Notes under the pieces: generated by a model
What the model saw: the letters and a program-made list of their open reading frames with translations, nothing else
Database searches by the model: none
Told to the model about the DNA's origin: nothing
Virus genome (UHGV): UHGV-0035288
Direction: 5' to 3' (one strand)
Length of the DNA stretch: 44,443 bases
Origin: a virus
Program-made: the position numbers and the translations under genes
Part shown: positions 2,402 through 29,051 of the stretch, piece after piece
How positions within the stretch are numbered: position 1 is the stretch's first letter
Layout: every line of letters starts with the position of its first letter

Positions 2402-4123
2402 TTATTTCTTCAACGCCGCGATCTCGGACTTCAACTCCCCCACCTGCTTATTGAGATATTGAATACACCCCATCAAGTCCATCACGATCGGGTTAACGTC
2501 TACGGACGGTCGGTCTACCGTTTTCTCCCCGATCTTGTTGCCGTCTTCGTCGAGGATATCCTCGACGGGTACTTCGATGTGCTTGATGTATTGCGGCGCG
2601 ATTAACTCCGCTTCTTCGGCGATAATACCGAAGCGACGGCGTCCCTTCTCGTCATCCTTGTACACGAAGTTAACAAGACGCTGGCGGCTAATGCGGTCCA
2701 TGGCCTCGCTTGCGTCTGCCTCGGCAATATCTTTCTTATACTCGCGACCCGACGTACCTTGCAGCGCGAGAATTCCGCCGCTGGTTGGGAATGTTACAAT
2801 GATTTGCCCCGTGTTGCTTCCATCCCCGCGTCGCCTAATAAGGTTGACCGTAGATATGACCCCATCTTCCCCCGATACTTCCATTATTGTCCTTGCGCCA
2901 ACCTGCGTATCCGGCGTGGCATACCTATTCGATTTAAAGGTTACGCCAGGGTATCCCTGGTTCTGGATAGTAATAACCCCGTCGGAGTCAATTGGACCCA
3001 AAGAACGCAGGTTTTTCGCCGAGAAAGTGCCCAGGTCATTAAAATCATAAACGGCGGTGCGGTCGGTTGTTCGGTTGTACACACTCAGGCGCGCGTAGTA
3101 TTCAGCCCCGATCGCCGCTCTGATACGCCAGGCCATGTTCGCTTCTTGAATCCCATTAACGTTGTAACGAGAATAGATCCCCCCGCCGTCAATGGTAGTG
3201 CCGACTGAGGGTTGGGTGGCGTCTTCTTTTATTACCGTCCAGCTATTAGTCGCAGTGCCCGCGTCTAGTAAGGACAGCGCCCAGCGCTTAGTCGCGGCAT
3301 CCAGATCCGCAATGGGGTCCGATCCGACTCGAAGCGGGCCGGGAGGCATAAGGTTCCCCCACGACGCCGTTTTATCAGCAAGCCCAGCAAGGTTGCCGGA
3401 TTTGGTTAGCAGGTTATCCACGTTAACGCTTTGCGCCCACTCCTCGGCCTGATCGCGGAATCCCTGAGCGGCAGTGCTGGCAGCTTGCGCGTCCATCTTC
3501 GCAGTGTTGGCCTCATCCCTCATAACGCTGGTGTCAGCCTTGATCTGGTTCGTCTGGTCTTTGATGGCCTGCGTATCAGTCTTAATCTGGTTGGTCTGCG
3601 TCTTGATGGTATTGGTGTCGTTTTTGAAGCCTTCGGCCTCATTGCGAAATCCTTGCGCTGCTGCTTCCGATGCGGCGGCTTGTTGTTGCAGGTTGCGCAT
3701 CTCAACCGGGTCTACGTTCTTAAGCAATTCCGACAGGTAGCCCCATGACATACCCTGCATGACTTGCCCGTTCGGTAGCGTTACCGTGATTTCTTCAGCG
3801 TCTCCGAAGATTGCACGCCAGTTGTTTTCATCTGCGATCATCAAGCGCAACGCTTTCTGTGCCTGTACGGTAACGCCCATAGTTGCCAGCGACATGGTAT
3901 CGCGCTTAACGCCATCCCACGCGAGGCCGGTTGCCGTTGGGCCGTCGAACGGAAGCACCAGCGTTAGCGCGGTTGCACTTTCAATGGACGCAATCGCTAC
4001 GGTGTAGGGTACTTGGCCCACCACCAGCGTTAAGAAGTCGCCAGCTTTAAACGCCGTAAACGTTGTTCCGACCCCGACAACCGCCTTGCTGTTATTCGTT
4101 ACGGATAGTGTACCCGCTGCCAT
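2402..4123 (-). CDS. tail fiber with C-terminal intramolecular chaperone (peptidase S74-like) domain
   Basis: Start moved to ATG at 4123 (GAGGA SD 7 nt upstream). N-terminus MAAGTLSVTNNSKAVVGVGTTF is a phage fiber anchor-type motif; central heptad-like repeats (QTNQIKTDTQAIKDQTNQIK); C-terminal block (...RLVNFVYKDDEKGRRRFGIIAEE...) resembles the self-cleaving chaperone of endosialidase-type fibers. Confidence 0.75.
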   Translation of the reverse strand: MAAGTLSVTNNSKAVVGVGTTFTAFKAGDFLTLVVGQVPYTVAIASIESATALTLVLPFDGPTATGLAWDGVKRDTMSLATMGVTVQAQKALRLMIADENNWRAIFGDAEEITVTLPNGQVMQGMSWGYLSELLKNVDPVEMRNLQQQAAASEAAAQGFRNEAEGFKNDTNTIKTQTNQIKTDTQAIKDQTNQIKADTSVMRDEANTAKMDAQAASTAAQGFRDQAEEWAQSVNVDNLLTKSGNLAGLADKTASWGNLMPPGPLRVGSDPIADLDAATKRWALSLLDAGTATNSWTVIKEDATQPSVGTTIDGGGIYSRYNVNGIQEANMAWRIRAAIGAEYYARLSVYNRTTDRTAVYDFNDLGTFSAKNLRSLGPIDSDGVITIQNQGYPGVTFKSNRYATPDTQVGARTIMEVSGEDGVISTVNLIRRRGDGSNTGQIIVTFPTSGGILALQGTSGREYKKDIAEADASEAMDRISRQRLVNFVYKDDEKGRRRFGIIAEEAELIAPQYIKHIEVPVEDILDEDGNKIGEKTVDRPSVDVNPIVMDLMGCIQYLNKQVGELKSEIAALKK

Positions 4124-4140
4124 AGCTGAATCCTCATAAA

Positions 4141-4169
4141 TTGGTTGCAATCCTGGTCGAGCGGTGCAA
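4141..4169 (+). promoter_or_regulatory. TTGGTTGCA motif plus degenerate second copy (CGGTGCAAT) upstream of lipoprotein moron
   Basis: TTGGTTGCA at 4141-4149, GGTGCAAT at 4162-4169, 35 nt upstream of ATG 4204. Confidence 0.4.
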
Positions 4170-4203: not shown

Positions 4204-4422
4204 ATGAAAACTTTAATTATGATTTGTGCGGTTCTTCTGTCCGGTTGTGCCGGTATGCCGTCTAAAATCTGCGACGCGACATATATGAATAGCGGTATGG
4301 AGTATTCTGTACCAGTGTTCGGTGTCGCCGACTTTAGCGGGCACAAAATGCTCAAGGCGGGGTATCCGTTCAACTTCCAGTATGTGTCGGTCGACCACTT
4401 CAAAAGCACCACCTGCAAATAA
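4204..4422 (+). CDS. small lipoprotein, candidate superinfection-exclusion protein (Cor/Llp-like)
   Basis: AGGAG SD then ATG 4204. MKTLIMICAVLLSGCAG is a signal peptide with lipobox LSGC; 72 aa. Opposite strand to flanking tail fiber genes, own terminator. Confidence 0.6.
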   Translation: MKTLIMICAVLLSGCAGMPSKICDATYMNSGMEYSVPVFGVADFSGHKMLKAGYPFNFQYVSVDHFKSTTCK

Positions 4423-4444: not shown

Positions 4445-5116
4445 ATCATAATTGGCCGTGTTAATCGCCATAATCGCGTTGCCGTTGTTAGTATACCCCA
4501 CCACATCCCCCGTGGCGTTCCCCGACGACGCTGCCGATATACGCGTTCGCGACCCATCAAATCTGGCCCCCGTGTACGCCGTTACTGATATTACCTGCGG
4601 CTGTCCCTGCACAAAAAACCGGATCAGCGTAGACCCCAATATGCCAGGAGCGACGGCGTAGCTGCCGTTTAGCGTCTGGTCAATGTTAATCCCTCCGTTA
4701 GCTCCTGGCGATCCGACGGTAACTAAATCACTTAGTACGCGACTCTCGTTAGTAAGCACTAGTTTCCCCGTCTTATCCCAAATAGCGAAGCCCCACCGCG
4801 GAAGGGTCTGTGGGAATATGGCAAAGATGTAAGCCGTCATCGTGAAGCCTTGCCCGAATGGATTGCTGGCGCTCACCTTCACCACATTACCAACGCGAGA
4901 AGATCCTACGACGGTCGGCTGGGCGGTGTGCGTAGTTTTCACAAACGCTATTGCAGGGTAGTCACCGCCCAAATTAATATCGGCAGCCGCCGACTGCGCA
5001 GTGCCGTTAGCCGAAGACCCAACAACCACACGGCGGAATAGACAAAACGGCGTCGATTCTGGCGTGATAAACGGGTTGCCGTTTGGTAAGTCAATCAACG
5101 CGCCGTAATTAGCCAT
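4442..5116 (-). CDS. putative distal tail / receptor-binding protein
   Basis: 224-aa Gly/Thr/Asn-rich ORF between the J-like gene and the lipoprotein/fiber genes; ATG at 5116 overlaps upstream stop (TAATG). Function inferred from position only. Confidence 0.45.
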   Translation of the reverse strand: MANYGALIDLPNGNPFITPESTPFCLFRRVVVGSSANGTAQSAAADINLGGDYPAIAFVKTTHTAQPTVVGSSRVGNVVKVSASNPFGQGFTMTAYIFAIFPQTLPRWGFAIWDKTGKLVLTNESRVLSDLVTVGSPGANGGINIDQTLNGSYAVAPGILGSTLIRFFVQGQPQVISVTAYTGARFDGSRTRISAASSGNATGDVVGYTNNGNAIMAINTANYD

Positions 5117-20131: not shown

Positions 20132-20218
20132 GCTATCCCCCTGGGATTGTGGCAAAGCGGGCCACCCGCTTGACTTCACGCTTCTAATATTATCAGCGAT
20201 AAAAATAATCGCAAAATT

Positions 20219-20258
20219 CGCTTGCAATCCTTGTATTGGTTGCAATATATTGGTTGCA
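20219..20258 (+). promoter_or_regulatory. promoter region with two tandem TTGGTTGCA motifs upstream of moron
   Basis: TTGGTTGCA at 20236-20244 and 20250-20258; TTGCAA/TATATT hexamers; followed by CACCAACAACGAGGAC leader shared with region 30971-31000. Confidence 0.5.
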
Positions 20259-20280
20259 CACCAACAACGAGGACACAAAA

Positions 20281-21045
20281 ATGAGACTGACCAAAGGCAT
20301 TAAAAACCAGATTCTGGCTAACATTCTGCGCGACCACGAAATCGCTACCGAAGCCAAATCAATCATGACGGACTCGCGCGACCTGGCGTATGACATTACG
20401 TTGCACTGTATGCCGGTGGGCATTCATACGTTCGCCGAACTATTCGCACACATTGAAGCAATCAACGATGACCCGTCGCAGATGTACGGCGTCTGCGTAT
20501 ACACCAACAAGGCGACGTATAGTTATAACACCGACCGCCCCAAAGGTATTGGCAGCGTTTACGACGCCACTTTCGAAATCAACGCAGGCGGTAACGTTCG
20601 CACCTTGTCATTGAGCGGCGATGGGCACCGATACCGAGTACATCGCGGATACTGGGAGTATAAATACATGAATAAGCTATCTCCCGATCTCGGCGATATC
20701 GTACCGGGGTTCGAGGAAGTTATGTTGGCTTCGGTGTGTGAAGTGGACGAGGACGGAAAATCGCTTCCGATCTATAAGCCACGCTGCCGTGCTGATTTCC
20801 CGGCGGATCATGACTTCTGTAAGCGCTTGGACCGTAACGACCAGGCCCGCCGCGAATTGCGTGCGAAGTATGACGCATTCAAGTTGACCGTTACCGGTGT
20901 GCTTGACCTGCACAATACTGACAAGAAGCTGATTAAGGCATGGCCTGAAGTTGAGCAATTCATCCCTTACCCGGACAAGCCAAAATCCACGGCGGTGGCG
21001 CTGGATGTGAAAACTCTCAACGAGATTTGCGGTATTCCGCGCTAA
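20281..21045 (+). CDS. hypothetical protein encoded by a moron inside the structural module
   Basis: GAGGA SD then ATG 20281; 254 aa; opposite strand to all neighbours, own promoter motif and own terminator. Confidence 0.6.
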   Translation: MRLTKGIKNQILANILRDHEIATEAKSIMTDSRDLAYDITLHCMPVGIHTFAELFAHIEAINDDPSQMYGVCVYTNKATYSYNTDRPKGIGSVYDATFEINAGGNVRTLSLSGDGHRYRVHRGYWEYKYMNKLSPDLGDIVPGFEEVMLASVCEVDEDGKSLPIYKPRCRADFPADHDFCKRLDRNDQARRELRAKYDAFKLTVTGVLDLHNTDKKLIKAWPEVEQFIPYPDKPKSTAVALDVKTLNEICGIPR

Positions 21046-21046
21046 C

Positions 21047-21079
21047 GAAAAAGGGGCCATTACGGCCCCTTAATTATTT
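21047..21079. terminator. bidirectional terminator
   Basis: GGGGCC-ATTAC-GGCCCC hairpin (21053-21069) with A5 before and TTAATTATTT after; between convergent moron and spanin genes. Confidence 0.6.
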
Positions 21080-21290
21080 GCTGCAACTCCAGCACCTGCG
21101 CCCTTAGCTTCGCCCCGCATTCCATATTTTTCACGTCAATCATCAAATCCTCGTCGGGGTCTGCGGACGGGCTATCGAACTTGCACGGCGGTCGCAGTGC
21201 CGACTCCGTTAGCGGCATCAACGGCGCGTTGCTTGATCCGCACGCGCTCAGCATCAAAACTACAATCAGGGCGGTTAGGGCGCGTAACAT
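21060..21290 (-). CDS. Rz1: o-spanin (Rz1-like outer-membrane lipoprotein)
   Basis: ATG 21290 inside Rz-like gene in another frame; MLRALTALIVVLMLSACGSS signal with lipobox LSAC; Pro-rich mature part; 76 aa. Confidence 0.6.
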   Translation of the reverse strand: MLRALTALIVVLMLSACGSSNAPLMPLTESALRPPCKFDSPSADPDEDLMIDVKNMECGAKLRAQVLELQQIIKGP

Positions 21291-21501
21291 ATTTAACAAC
21301 CTCTTTCGTGATAGTCCGGTATTCCACGTCGCGGGCCTGTTCGGCCTGCACGGAGCGCTCCACAACTTTAGTTTGCTGCCGTTGGGCTTTGGCTTGCGCT
21401 TCTTGCGCCGCCTCCGCCACTACGCCAGCGCGATAGGAGTCACCTAGCCAGAATCCTACCGCCAGACCGATAACCAGTCCAATCGCTGCATATTTAATCA
21501 C
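21172..21501 (-). CDS. Rz: i-spanin (Rz-like)
   Basis: 109 aa; N-terminal transmembrane helix (MIKYAAIGLVIGLAVGFWL) then Ala/Gln/Glu-rich coiled coil; overlaps Rz1-like ORF. Confidence 0.6.
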   Translation of the reverse strand: MIKYAAIGLVIGLAVGFWLGDSYRAGVVAEAAQEAQAKAQRQQTKVVERSVQAEQARDVEYRTITKEVVKYVTRPNRPDCSFDAERVRIKQRAVDAANGVGTATAVQVR

Positions 21502-22597
21502 GCCATAACCCCCGGTTTTTAAGCTGAGCGATAGTCATTAGTTCGCCGGAATCGGTGAACATCTTCGGAACTTTCACTCCGCGAATAATCTGGTCGGCGC
21601 GTTGCACTCCGTATAATTCCTCCAGGATATGGCGCGGCTGGCGCTGCACCCATGAGAAGAAATCAGTCTGCGCGTCTACCTGCTCACTCAGCAATCTACC
21701 CGCGTCAGCCTTCAGTGCCGGACGCTTACCACTGGGCCAATCTTCCATGCCCTTGACTTTCCACGTCTCCGTCGACCGGCAGCAATAATGCAACTTGCCC
21801 GGACCAGCGCCATATTGTGACCCAGCCACCACTTTCCCGCCGCGCTTTCCTTTGGTGTCGGGAGTAACATCAACCGGATAAAACAGGCGATCGCGTAGCT
21901 GGCACATGGGAGAAGTATGCGTGTCCAATGTAGATAACCATTGGCGACCTTCGAGAATATCGTCATTTGCTTTTACCATTAGTTCGCGGGCGGTCGCCGC
22001 ATAGTGGTTGACTGCGGACTTAACAACGCTTGAGATGGCTTGCGCACTACGACCGCCTAGCGCGCGCCTCACGTCCGCGATAATTTCCATCGTTGGCTTG
22101 CCCTGGATGAATCCGGCGCGCACCTGATTACCTATCTGCGTCCTGGTCCACTCAGAAAGTGAGTCAGGCCATTGCATCATCGTATTACCCTGGAACGGGT
22201 TTTTCATTGCCGTCGCTGCGATCTGCGCACCGGTCACTACGCCAACCACCTCGACCGCCGGTACGGCGACCACCGGCTGGATCGCTGCCGTTAATGTGTC
22301 GGCGAGATAATCGGCCTCGGTGTCGGCGAACTCCTGAAGGCTTTCAGCCAACGCCTTAAACTCGGTGCGCAGTTCCGTTTTGACGGTTTTGTCGAGTTGC
22401 GTTAACAGAGTGGTAAGTGCCTTGTTGTTCATGGACTTTTTACCATCAAGTAACTCGGTCAGCTTACCCAGTAACGTGGGCCGGAACTTCTCCCACATAG
22501 CCAGCACCCTCCGCGCCTGGTCATTGCTCAGGCGCTGGGTGAAGATGTGACGGCGGATCATGCGATCCGCCATATATTGATTAATTGTCTTCGCCAT
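21494..22597 (-). CDS. head morphogenesis protein (minor head protein)
   Basis: 367 aa directly downstream of portal gene, overlapping it by 17 nt. Confidence 0.65.
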   Translation of the reverse strand: MAKTINQYMADRMIRRHIFTQRLSNDQARRVLAMWEKFRPTLLGKLTELLDGKKSMNNKALTTLLTQLDKTVKTELRTEFKALAESLQEFADTEADYLADTLTAAIQPVVAVPAVEVVGVVTGAQIAATAMKNPFQGNTMMQWPDSLSEWTRTQIGNQVRAGFIQGKPTMEIIADVRRALGGRSAQAISSVVKSAVNHYAATARELMVKANDDILEGRQWLSTLDTHTSPMCQLRDRLFYPVDVTPDTKGKRGGKVVAGSQYGAGPGKLHYCCRSTETWKVKGMEDWPSGKRPALKADAGRLLSEQVDAQTDFFSWVQRQPRHILEELYGVQRADQIIRGVKVPKMFTDSGELMTIAQLKNRGLWRD

Positions 22598-27579: not shown

Positions 27580-27603
27580 AAAAAGCCCGGAATTAACCGG
27601 GCT
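27580..27603 (-). terminator. rho-independent terminator
   Basis: GCCCGG-AATTAA-CCGGGC hairpin with T5 on minus strand; downstream of Ig-like gene. Confidence 0.65.
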
Positions 27604-27610
27604 TGTGGTT

Positions 27611-28024
27611 TTATTCTCCTGCTTCCGTTACGGTGAAGATGGCGGACGCCATTGCCCCGCTACCATCGGAGGCCACCCAAAAGATGTGGGCGCTACCTGC
27701 CGTTTGGGCTGTGATTTCTCCGGTAGTCTGATCGATCGCCGCACAGGCAGGATTCGACGACACCCACGACCCGGCCTTGTTAGTCGCGTCGGGTGGCTGG
27801 ACCGCAACCGAAGCGGTGGCCTTCGCACCAACTGCGGCGGATTCCGGTGTGATAGTTACGGTCGCACTTGTCACCGGCTTACTTTCCGGCGGGCTGGGTA
27901 ACTTCGCGTCGAATACCCCCGCATGGCTGATCGTATCCGCTACAATAGCGCGTGCGCCTGGGTCTTCGGTTTTAGCCAGCGCGGCAAGCGCGTCGGCGTT
28001 ATGATCAAGAATACTTTTTAACAT
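27611..28024 (-). CDS. Ig-like (Big_2-type) domain protein
   Basis: 137 aa; C-terminal Thr/Ala/Ser-rich beta-strand pattern typical of bacterial Ig-like domains; downstream of endolysin. Confidence 0.45.
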   Translation of the reverse strand: MLKSILDHNADALAALAKTEDPGARAIVADTISHAGVFDAKLPSPPESKPVTSATVTITPESAAVGAKATASVAVQPPDATNKAGSWVSSNPACAAIDQTTGEITAQTAGSAHIFWVASDGSGAMASAIFTVTEAGE

Positions 28025-28040: not shown

Positions 28041-28532
28041 TTATGCTGCGTTACGTCCGATCTTCTCGGCAACGTCCCACTGCTTACCATCAAATAGCGC
28101 CTGCCTGCCGATTGCTCGACGGACTAACCCCTTCAGCACTTCGCCACCTTGCTTGCGGAACTGCGGCAGAGTAGCCCGTACCTTCGCCCAGTCGCCCAGT
28201 CGCACCGCATCGTCAAAGTCGTTGGCAATGTTGTCCGGTACGATCGGACCCGGACCGGCATTGATTACCAGGTCCACCAGCGCGTCGAATTGCGCCTGGT
28301 TAATGCTCGGATGCGCGTATTTGTTCACCCAGTCCTCGGCATACGCCACATCGCGCTTGAGCAGTTCCAGCGCTTCAGCACGGGTAATGCTTCTAGGCGG
28401 ATTAGTGCCGGTGTGCCCATAACCCCAGGTGTACAGGCCGCGGGCCTGCTCTTTCTTGGTCGCGAAATACGGCACCGGGCTGAAAGCCTCCCATGCTGCC
28501 GTAAATCGTAGACCGTTATCACTGAATCGCAT
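28041..28532 (-). CDS. endolysin (lysozyme-like muramidase)
   Basis: 163 aa; E...GYGHT-type lysozyme motif (YTWGYGHTG); start overlaps holin gene; no signal peptide. Confidence 0.7.
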   Translation of the reverse strand: MRFSDNGLRFTAAWEAFSPVPYFATKKEQARGLYTWGYGHTGTNPPRSITRAEALELLKRDVAYAEDWVNKYAHPSINQAQFDALVDLVINAGPGPIVPDNIANDFDDAVRLGDWAKVRATLPQFRKQGGEVLKGLVRRAIGRQALFDGKQWDVAEKIGRNAA

Positions 28533-28764
28533 GTTTTACCCCATTCAAAACAGCATTACGCAGGGTGCGCAATGCAAACAGCCAGATTAACGCGGTCCAG
28601 GTGGCATCAGATACGTCTCCCGCTTGCAACAGCCCGACAATACAGGTCATTGCTGTTAGCAGATATAACACCCGACCGAAGAAGCCATCCTGAACGGACG
28701 GCGCATACACGTTAAACAGGGACGAAGCCCCTATGATAACAAACAACAGGACGGTGAGAATCAT
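28519..28764 (-). CDS. holin
   Basis: 81 aa with two to three hydrophobic helices; immediately upstream of endolysin, overlapping. Confidence 0.55.
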   Translation of the reverse strand: MILTVLLFVIIGASSLFNVYAPSVQDGFFGRVLYLLTAMTCIVGLLQAGDVSDATWTALIWLFALRTLRNAVLNGVKHAIQ

Positions 28765-29051
28765 TTTGCGCCCCCCGGAAGGTGTAGCGACGCAATTGTC
28801 TCCCGGATCCGGTCAGCTATTGGCATCCAGAAGATGGCAGTTACGAAGCCCAAACCGGCAACAGTGCGCTCGCCAGACAAACCAGACCACTCGGCAATAG
28901 CTGGCGCACCAAATATGGCACACAGGAAGCCAACTACGACATATAAAACGAAGTTCAACGGCCCTTTCGTTGCCTCGCCATGAATGCGTGCGCCGACGAA
29001 GCCACCAGCAAGACACGCAAGGGCGAATAACCACTCGTTTAGCTTATCCAT
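28761..29051 (-). CDS. holin-like membrane protein (second holin or antiholin)
   Basis: 96 aa, three hydrophobic segments; ATG 29051; overlaps next holin (ATGA). Confidence 0.5.
   Translation of the reverse strand: MDKLNEWLFALACLAGGFVGARIHGEATKGPLNFVLYVVVGFLCAIFGAPAIAEWSGLSGERTVAGLGFVTAIFWMPIADRIRETIASLHLPGGAK

Follow-up and report, generated by a model that had tools for sequence, protein, structure and literature searches.

Can a spanin pair be recognized far from the lysis genes that it would serve, and is such a separation unusual? This question is raised by positions 21060-21501 of the virus genome UHGV-0035288, which we analysed as one stretch of 44,443 nucleotides (nt), referred to here as the window. 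A preliminary description, made from the letters of this DNA, had proposed an Rz-like and an overlapping Rz1-like open reading frame (ORF) at this locus, 6.7 kb from the holin-endolysin cassette, and had described a split lysis module as less common. We conclude that the two genes very probably encode the two-component spanin of a Dhillonvirus (HK578-like Escherichia coli siphophage) in the overlapped architecture. Both the pair and the split layout are already known; annotated and conserved in hundreds of relatives that infect E. coli and Salmonella, the layout is ordinary.

Two overlapping genes carry the signals of an inner and an outer membrane spanin

The interval 21060-21501 is the exact union of two ORFs on the minus strand, which share part of their DNA:

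21172-21501, minus strand: i-spanin gene (Rz equivalent), 109 amino acids (aa); ORF, transmembrane helix, match to phrog_2536
21060-21290, minus strand: o-spanin gene (Rz1 equivalent), 76 aa, +1 frame; lipobox, matches to phrog_5672 and phrog_1267
21172-21290, minus strand: dual-coding overlap of both spanin genes, 119 nt; codon-position and double-non-synonymous statistics

The i-spanin (N-terminus MIKYAAIGLVIGLAVGFWLGDSYR...) starts at a GTG codon preceded by GGGGG, 7 nt upstream. Its sole hydrophobic stretch comprises residues 1-22 (Kyte-Doolittle 17-residue mean 1.95) and qualifies as a transmembrane segment, in agreement with the preliminary description. The remaining 87 residues are 31% charged and contain a single cysteine, C80; we infer an N-in/C-out, type II orientation. 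The protein matches phrog_2536, labelled 'Rz-like spanin', over its full length (4.5e-37). Database searches with the i-spanin recovered close relatives only, and i-spanin or Rz-like spanin is the name given to relatives in NCBI and UniRef. A low-confidence AlphaFold2 model places helices at residues 3-73 and 84-97, connected by a linker around Cys80 (predicted template modelling score, pTM, 0.21). A helical i-spanin is likely; the coiled coil named in the preliminary description is conjectural.

The o-spanin (N-terminus MLRALTALIVVLMLSACGSS...) starts at an ATG preceded by AAGAGG, 9 nt upstream. Its signal peptide, MLRALTALIVVLMLSA|CGSS, ends in the lipobox LSAC that had been pointed out before, with Cys17 followed by Gly at +2 and Ser at +3; an Asp at +2 is absent, as expected for an outer membrane lipoprotein. 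The mature part of 60 aa includes seven prolines (11.7%), consistent with its earlier description as proline-rich, as well as Cys36 and Cys58. A proline-rich segment is followed by a C-terminal helix-like segment (approximately residues 41-76, ...DPDEDLMIDVKNMECGAKLRAQVLELQQIIKGP). Both PHROGs matched by the protein, phrog_5672 (4e-26) and phrog_1267 (7e-12), are labelled 'Rz-like spanin'. Past the signal peptide the o-spanin has no hydrophobic segment and so does not correspond to a unimolecular spanin (u-spanin) of the T1 gp11 type; a six-frame scan of the genome found no ORF of that type elsewhere. Together with JL1 identity and the annotations of related phages given below, these PHROG matches and envelope signals bear out the earlier spanin call for both ORFs.

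Both reading frames are maintained by purifying selection

We took the 442-nt pair out of 19 further Dhillonvirus genomes and aligned the 20 copies, which required no gaps. Both frames are open in all 20. The lipobox cysteine Cys17 (within [LM][ST]AC), Cys36 and Cys58 of the o-spanin and Cys80 of the i-spanin are invariant, and each subunit carries periplasmic cysteine that could form homotypic intermolecular disulfides, as do the homologues in K1G, SE2 and the loci L023-L025 at the corresponding positions.

The distribution of variable sites follows the codon structure of each frame. Where only the i-spanin is encoded, variation concentrates at the third position of the i-frame (45/70 sites, compared with 23/71 and 11/70 at the other two). 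In the part unique to the o-spanin, it peaks at the third position of the o-frame (22/37 versus 13/36 and, at position 2, 5/36). Within the overlap, the third positions of either frame vary at 17/40 and 17/39 sites, while the position constrained in both frames is the least variable (6/40). Moreover, double-non-synonymous changes are depleted in the overlap, with 9/41 observed versus 155/326 possible (binomial p=6.6e-4). The two ORFs are genuine genes, and purifying selection acts on both. The definition of two-component spanins (Summer 2007; Kongari 2018) allows an o-spanin gene that is embedded, overlapping or directly downstream, typically in the +1 frame; here the second gene overlaps the first in that frame, and both frames are coding.

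A comparison of the window with L005, L016, L019, L020 and L021 shows two forms of the end of the i-spanin gene (21172-21200) within Dhillonvirus. The tail seen in the window gives a protein of 109 aa (...GVGTATAVQVR), and the other form a protein of 102 aa (...RVGL). The length of the o-spanin is the same with both tails. The two versions agree with a published note that the i-spanin's far C-terminal end varies freely in overlapped pairs.

The pair belongs to a catalogued spanin family

A DNA search with 3 kb around the pair matched 159 phage records, nearly all of them Dhillonvirus (HK578-like siphophages) from Escherichia and Shigella, with SECphi4 as best match (98% identity). Judging from these matches, the 44.4-kb window is an essentially complete Dhillonvirus genome. 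The spanins of this group have been catalogued as the 'Jersey' families of overlapped i-spanins and overlapped o-spanins, whose members include HK578, JL1, SSL-2009a, EK99P-1, EP23 and SO-1 as well as Jersey, SETP3, SE2 and the K1 phages K1G and K1H (Kongari et al. 2018, PMC6139136). With the JL1 pair, the proteins of the window share 99.1% (i-spanin) and 98.7% (o-spanin) identity, with the pairs of SE2 and K1G 42-45%, and they fall within the BLASTCLUST thresholds that delimit the 'Jersey' i- and o-spanin families (Kongari 2018). They are direct members of this family, with the same overlapped +1-frame architecture at the same spot after the head-morphogenesis gene, and nothing substantial sets them apart; in Dhillonvirus, the i-spanin tail gives either of the two protein lengths described above.

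In GenBank, the BASEL phages GeorgBuechner, TheodorHerzl and Oekolampad have both an i-spanin and an o-spanin annotated at this locus. In other records the label for the 76-aa product is 'Rz-like spanin' or 'putative spanin', many Dhillonvirus entries leave the i-spanin hypothetical, and SECphi4 annotates the 109-aa ORF only, as hypothetical. At the DNA level, tblastn detects i-spanin homologues in 660 phage records and o-spanin homologues in 649. Reading frames, targeting signals, selection on both frames, membership in the family and the synteny considered next are direct observations.

Separation from the holin-endolysin cassette is a conserved layout

The genes and sites that define the distance between the pair and the cassette, and the boundaries of the two blocks, are the following:

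28761-29051, minus strand: holin 1, 96 aa; phrog_2359 holin, 5.1e-31
28519-28764, minus strand: holin 2 or antiholin, 81 aa; phrog_2508 holin, 4.7e-26
28041-28532, minus strand: endolysin, 163 aa, soluble and lysozyme-like, lacking an N-terminal hydrophobic segment; phrog_7, 5.9e-36
27611-28024, minus strand: protein with an immunoglobulin (Ig)-like domain of Big_2 type, 137 aa; first gene after the endolysin
21494-22597, minus strand: head-morphogenesis (MuF/SPP1 gp7-like) gene; phrog_241, 3.5e-116
21051-21071, both strands: bidirectional intrinsic-terminator-like hairpin containing the o-spanin stop codon
27583-27604, no strand assigned: terminator-like hairpin after the holin-endolysin-Ig-like block; consensus scan only
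29086-29057, minus strand: terminator-like site before the first holin; consensus scan
26159-26139, minus strand: terminator-like site before the TerS gene; consensus scan

The matches to phrog_2359, phrog_2508 and phrog_7 place both holin candidates and the endolysin at 28041-29051, where they had been located before. The cassette is upstream of the pair. The nearest ends of the two (28041 and 21501) are 6.54 kb apart, and the distance from the o-spanin start is 6.75 kb, so the earlier figure of 6.7 kb is acceptable. Six minus-strand genes intervene between endolysin and i-spanin, encoding the Ig-like protein, an exonuclease/phosphoesterase, TerS, TerL, the portal protein and MuF. The window accordingly lacks a contiguous lambda-type lysis cassette with holin, endolysin and spanin genes side by side. 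Near the endolysin, ORF inspection, PHROG matches and a lipoprotein scan revealed no second spanin or u-spanin.

The same separation recurs in other genera. In the Kagunavirus K1G (a circle of 43,587 bp), the endolysin gene runs to 40644 and Rz begins at 4663, 7.6 kb apart, and in the Jerseyvirus SE2 the distance from endolysin to spanins is 7.7 kb. The window's order, from holin and endolysin through a few genes to terminase, portal, head morphogenesis, spanins, scaffold and capsid, is found in both phages. In K1G and SE2 the scaffold gene follows the pair, whereas the window has an opposite-strand Nmad5 gene at this place. The split of the spanins from the cassette has been stated in print for phage Schulenberg (PMC6763661), and it is implicit in the gene order of vB_EcoS_P78, with holins as ORF31-32, endolysin as ORF33 and spanin as ORF40 (PMC12677095). 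T4 is the textbook case of unlinked spanin genes (PMC6139136). Because the family is catalogued, annotated at the same locus and placed in the same split order in other genera, the finding is one already known, and the emphasis of the preliminary description on the split was overstated: the arrangement is conserved in Dhillonvirus, Kagunavirus and Jerseyvirus. The window thus adds one more case of spanin genes unlinked from holin and endolysin. For annotation, the result is useful but routine: the gene list of this genome should contain both spanins.

The spanins are probably the last genes of the terminase-portal-MuF transcription unit

The stop codon of the MuF gene overlaps the GTG start of the i-spanin gene (GTGATTAA), a junction kept in 20/20 Dhillonvirus copies. 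Because of this overlap, translation of the spanins is probably coupled to the MuF gene, and production of the pair probably falls late in infection, along with that of the head proteins. On the distal side, the hairpin at 21051-21071 has a predicted folding energy of -25.6 kcal/mol (z=-3.0), and its stem is kept in 20 relatives with both arms changed (AAGGGGCC/GGCCCCTT to CGGGGGCC/GGCCCCCT). This hairpin marks the boundary between the terminase-portal-MuF-spanin block and the Nmad5 gene that converges on it. The hairpin at 27583-27604 suggests that cassette and spanins belong to different transcription units. Since terminator-like hairpins bound both blocks, transcription of the terminase-portal-MuF unit probably finishes with the spanins, apart from the holin-endolysin unit. 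The Ig-like gene (27611-28024) falls within the hairpin-bounded lysis block; its product matches PHROGs labelled 'structural protein with Ig domain' and 'major tail protein' via the Ig-like domain only.

A model for spanin function in the split layout

From these features and from better known phages, we infer how the proteins sit in the membranes, that the o-spanin is lipidated, that complexes form, which transcription units exist and what the pair does in lysis. In the proposed sequence of events, the pair, as the last two genes of the terminase-portal-MuF block, would probably be made late alongside the head proteins. Its signals predict that the i-spanin inserts into the inner membrane by its N-terminal helix and exposes its C-terminus to the periplasm. 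The o-spanin would be lipidated at Cys17 and, because position +2 is Gly rather than Asp, sorted by the Lol system to the outer membrane. By analogy with lambda Rz/Rz1 and T4 PseT.3/PseT.2 (summarized in PMC6139136), the periplasmic domains of both subunits may then bind each other to form disulfide-linked complexes that span the periplasm, threaded through the peptidoglycan mesh, which keeps them where they are. Triggering of the holin or holins (28519-29051) would release the soluble endolysin (28041-28532), which would degrade the mesh, and the freed spanin complexes could fuse or disrupt the outer membrane and so complete lysis. Linkage to holin and endolysin would be dispensable for such proteins, because the state of the cell wall, rather than their own expression or gene regulation, restrains them. 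Such freedom of gene position fits an ancient, conserved placement in the head block.

The pair resembles lambda Rz/Rz1 in combining a type II inner membrane protein with an outer membrane lipoprotein in the +1 frame, in its periplasmic cysteines and in presumably serving the last lysis step. In contrast to the window's pair, which only overlaps and lies 6.5 kb away, Rz1 of lambda is fully embedded in Rz and both directly follow the endolysin gene R. The lambda i-spanin is longer (153 aa versus 109 aa) and has no detectable sequence similarity to the window's protein, and lambda Rz1 lacks the C-terminal helix-like segment of the window's o-spanin. That segment has a parallel in T4 PseT.3/PseT.2, whose o-spanin carries two periplasmic cysteines and is predicted to have a helix at its C-terminus (PMC6139136); however, the T4 genes are separated rather than overlapped, and the T4 i-spanin has no listed homology to the window's. 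P2 LysB/LysC shares the overlapped architecture (PMC6139136) but is contiguous with the holin and endolysin genes and belongs to another sequence family.

Alternative explanations for the locus

The setting of the two genes could suggest that both encode head-assembly or structural proteins with no part in lysis, the fallback named in the preliminary description. They do lie within the head-gene block, between the MuF-like gene and the scaffold and capsid genes, with the MuF stop codon overlapping the i-spanin start, and some GenBank records list the products as 'hypothetical' or 'conserved exported protein'. Yet a transmembrane anchor and a lipoprotein signal target the cell envelope, not capsids. 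Both proteins match spanin PHROGs and neither matches a structural one, the near identity to the JL1 pair points the same way, and the catalogue of Kongari et al. 2018 lists the family among the spanins. Furthermore, in two distant relatives, L027 and L028, the homologous pair stands directly after holin and endolysin. We therefore consider a structural role highly improbable. A literature search for virion proteomics of this phage group yielded nothing relevant. Even smaller is the chance that the 109-aa membrane protein alone is real and the 76-aa lipobox ORF is a fortuitous open frame. Many records, that of the closest relative SECphi4 among them, carry an annotation for just one ORF of the pair, and the o-spanin query retrieved only 6 near-identical clusters from a large protein database. 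This scarcity arises because gene callers seldom report this ORF, and homologues were instead taken from DNA, by tblastn and from IMG/VR loci. Overlapped o-spanins are under-annotated in general, with 196 unannotated examples (Kongari et al., PMC6139136). Against a chance frame stand the good Shine-Dalgarno sequence, the open frame with invariant lipobox and cysteines in 20 genomes, and homologous ORFs of 35-49% identity in Jerseyvirus, Kagunavirus and metagenomic relatives. Past the overlap, variation moreover peaks at the third position of the o-frame (with 5/36 variable sites left at position 2), and the codon-position analysis effectively refutes this explanation.

A further alternative is an envelope system of another role, for example superinfection exclusion or a membrane assembly site, in a phage that disrupts the outer membrane by other means. 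Spanin function in this family is an assignment by sequence, the phage has another lipoprotein with an exclusion role, Cor, and the distance from the lysis genes is unusual by lambda-like thinking. Nevertheless, the genome holds no other spanin, u-spanin or lipoprotein candidate, and when a phage of Gram-negative bacteria has canonical holin and endolysin, a disruptor of the outer membrane is normally required as well (PMC6139136). A type II membrane protein combined with a +1-frame lipoprotein, both with conserved periplasmic cysteines, is also the defining spanin signature. We give a separate envelope function a slim chance.

Several points nonetheless weigh against the assignment of the pair as a spanin. 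Its function is deduced from signals, architecture and family membership, and we know of no member of the Jersey-type spanin family, papers included, that has been genetically tested. A Pfam scan of both proteins gave no family match at E<=1, and thus neither belongs to the lambda-type spanin families Phage_lysis and Rz1; because of this lack of matches, kinship of the pair to lambda Rz/Rz1 is not detectable in sequence. With 87 and 59 residues, the periplasmic parts are short. The i-spanin model is of low confidence (mean predicted local distance difference test, pLDDT, 55; shallow alignment) and was excluded from fold searches. Finally, the terminator consensus scan, from which the putative transcription units are drawn, gives no more sites than shuffled sequence does.

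A C-terminal module possibly shared between overlapped and embedded spanins

Searched with a profile of the conserved i-spanin core (ITKEVVKY...C..FD.E.VR), IMG/VR yielded 80 loci, which we sorted by architecture. Most are overlapped like the window's pair, with an i-spanin of 102-129 aa and an o-spanin of ~76-81 aa that ends in ...D.DLq.D.eNaEC..qLRl..yrWQaWY. Seven distinct loci (L027, L028, L033, L034, L035, L044 and L059) are of the embedded type: the i-spanin measures 156-179 aa, and a proline-rich o-spanin of 46-77 aa lies wholly inside it in the +1 frame. Here it is the i-spanin that terminates in ...a(l/i)..(i/v)t.NY..C...r..l.gWQ.(W/F)Y, a segment missing from the o-spanin. The pairs that directly follow holin and endolysin are found at 8971-9444 in L027 and at 8791-9324 in L028. 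A profile of the seven long i-spanins identified 48 more long ones (149-198 aa) in a database of 5.8 billion sequences, and it also reaches Dhillonvirus i-spanins with E down to 5.5e-9, which is evidence at the profile level that embedded and overlapped i-spanins are related.

The similar ends suggest an origin for the C-terminal cysteine helix of the o-spanin. It could be the module that ends the distant i-spanins, moved by one frameshifting indel in the transition from embedded to overlapped architecture: an indel within the dual-coding linker would shorten the i-spanin and at once attach the module that formerly ended it to the o-spanin in the +1 frame. In pairwise BLASTP the module gives E = 0.001 and 0.003. 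Aligned by hhalign to a profile of 52 long i-spanins, the overlapped-o-spanin profile places its positions 41-80 (of 81) on positions 129-168 (of 180), with a score of 29.2, P=1.2e-4 and a probability of 55%; the maximum among 200 column-shuffled controls is 18.8. Residue shuffles reach the real score in 0/2000 cases for L027 and L035 and in 47-210/2000 cases for the other five. Other tests were weaker or negative. A hidden Markov model of the o-spanin module, run against 16,829 six-frame ORFs, reaches embedded-type i-spanins at E=0.17 and 4.7, values short of significance in a database of this size, and the o-spanins do not match phrog_4952, the family of long i-spanins, even at E<=10. On balance, we regard the transfer of the module as a tentative proposal, with a little less than an even chance of being right. 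Kongari et al. 2018 found no family that spans the embedded and overlapped architectures (PMC6139136).

If the proposal is true, the two architectures are linked within one spanin family, the C-terminal helix module is able to sit on either subunit, and one frameshift interconverts the architectures. This would inform where the subunits meet and how overlapping genes evolve, and might be of interest to lysis specialists. Among cultured phages, tblastn with the long i-spanin of L027 found four Pseudomonas phage records (two phages), matched in the N-terminal part only. A synteny argument from the exonuclease beside the L028 spanins and the exonuclease of the window was dropped, as their similarity reaches E=0.01 only.

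Neighbouring and other lipoprotein genes

Two further genes bear on the surroundings of the pair and on the search for other lipoproteins:

20281-21045, plus strand: nucleotide modification associated domain 5 (Nmad5) protein, 254 aa; PF18757 2.6e-56, phrog_1965
4204-4422, plus strand: Cor superinfection-exclusion lipoprotein, 72 aa (MKTLIMICAVLLSGC...); phrog_1119, 5e-28

A six-frame scan for lipoprotein signals over the 44 kb detected three ORFs, namely the o-spanin, Cor (4204-4422) and a weak 41-aa ORF. Cor, on the strand opposite to the spanins, is the sole other clear lipoprotein gene of the genome and adjoins the tail-fibre gene (2402-4150). The lipoprotein at 4204-4422 was considered as an alternative o-spanin and ruled out by its identity as Cor.

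The gene at 20281-21045, which had been called a moron, does flank the pair as described, and the label is corrected to that of an Nmad5-domain gene by the match to PF18757. It is located between the o-spanin and scaffold genes on the opposite strand, with a promoter-like site at 20222-20251, and shares the terminator hairpin with the spanin block. K1G and SE2 have no gene at this spot. Between the scaffold and Nmad5 genes (20140-20280), many Dhillonvirus genomes contain ~360 bp of extra DNA, which marks a variable insertion spot; in phage Zumzum, two small ORFs occupy it.

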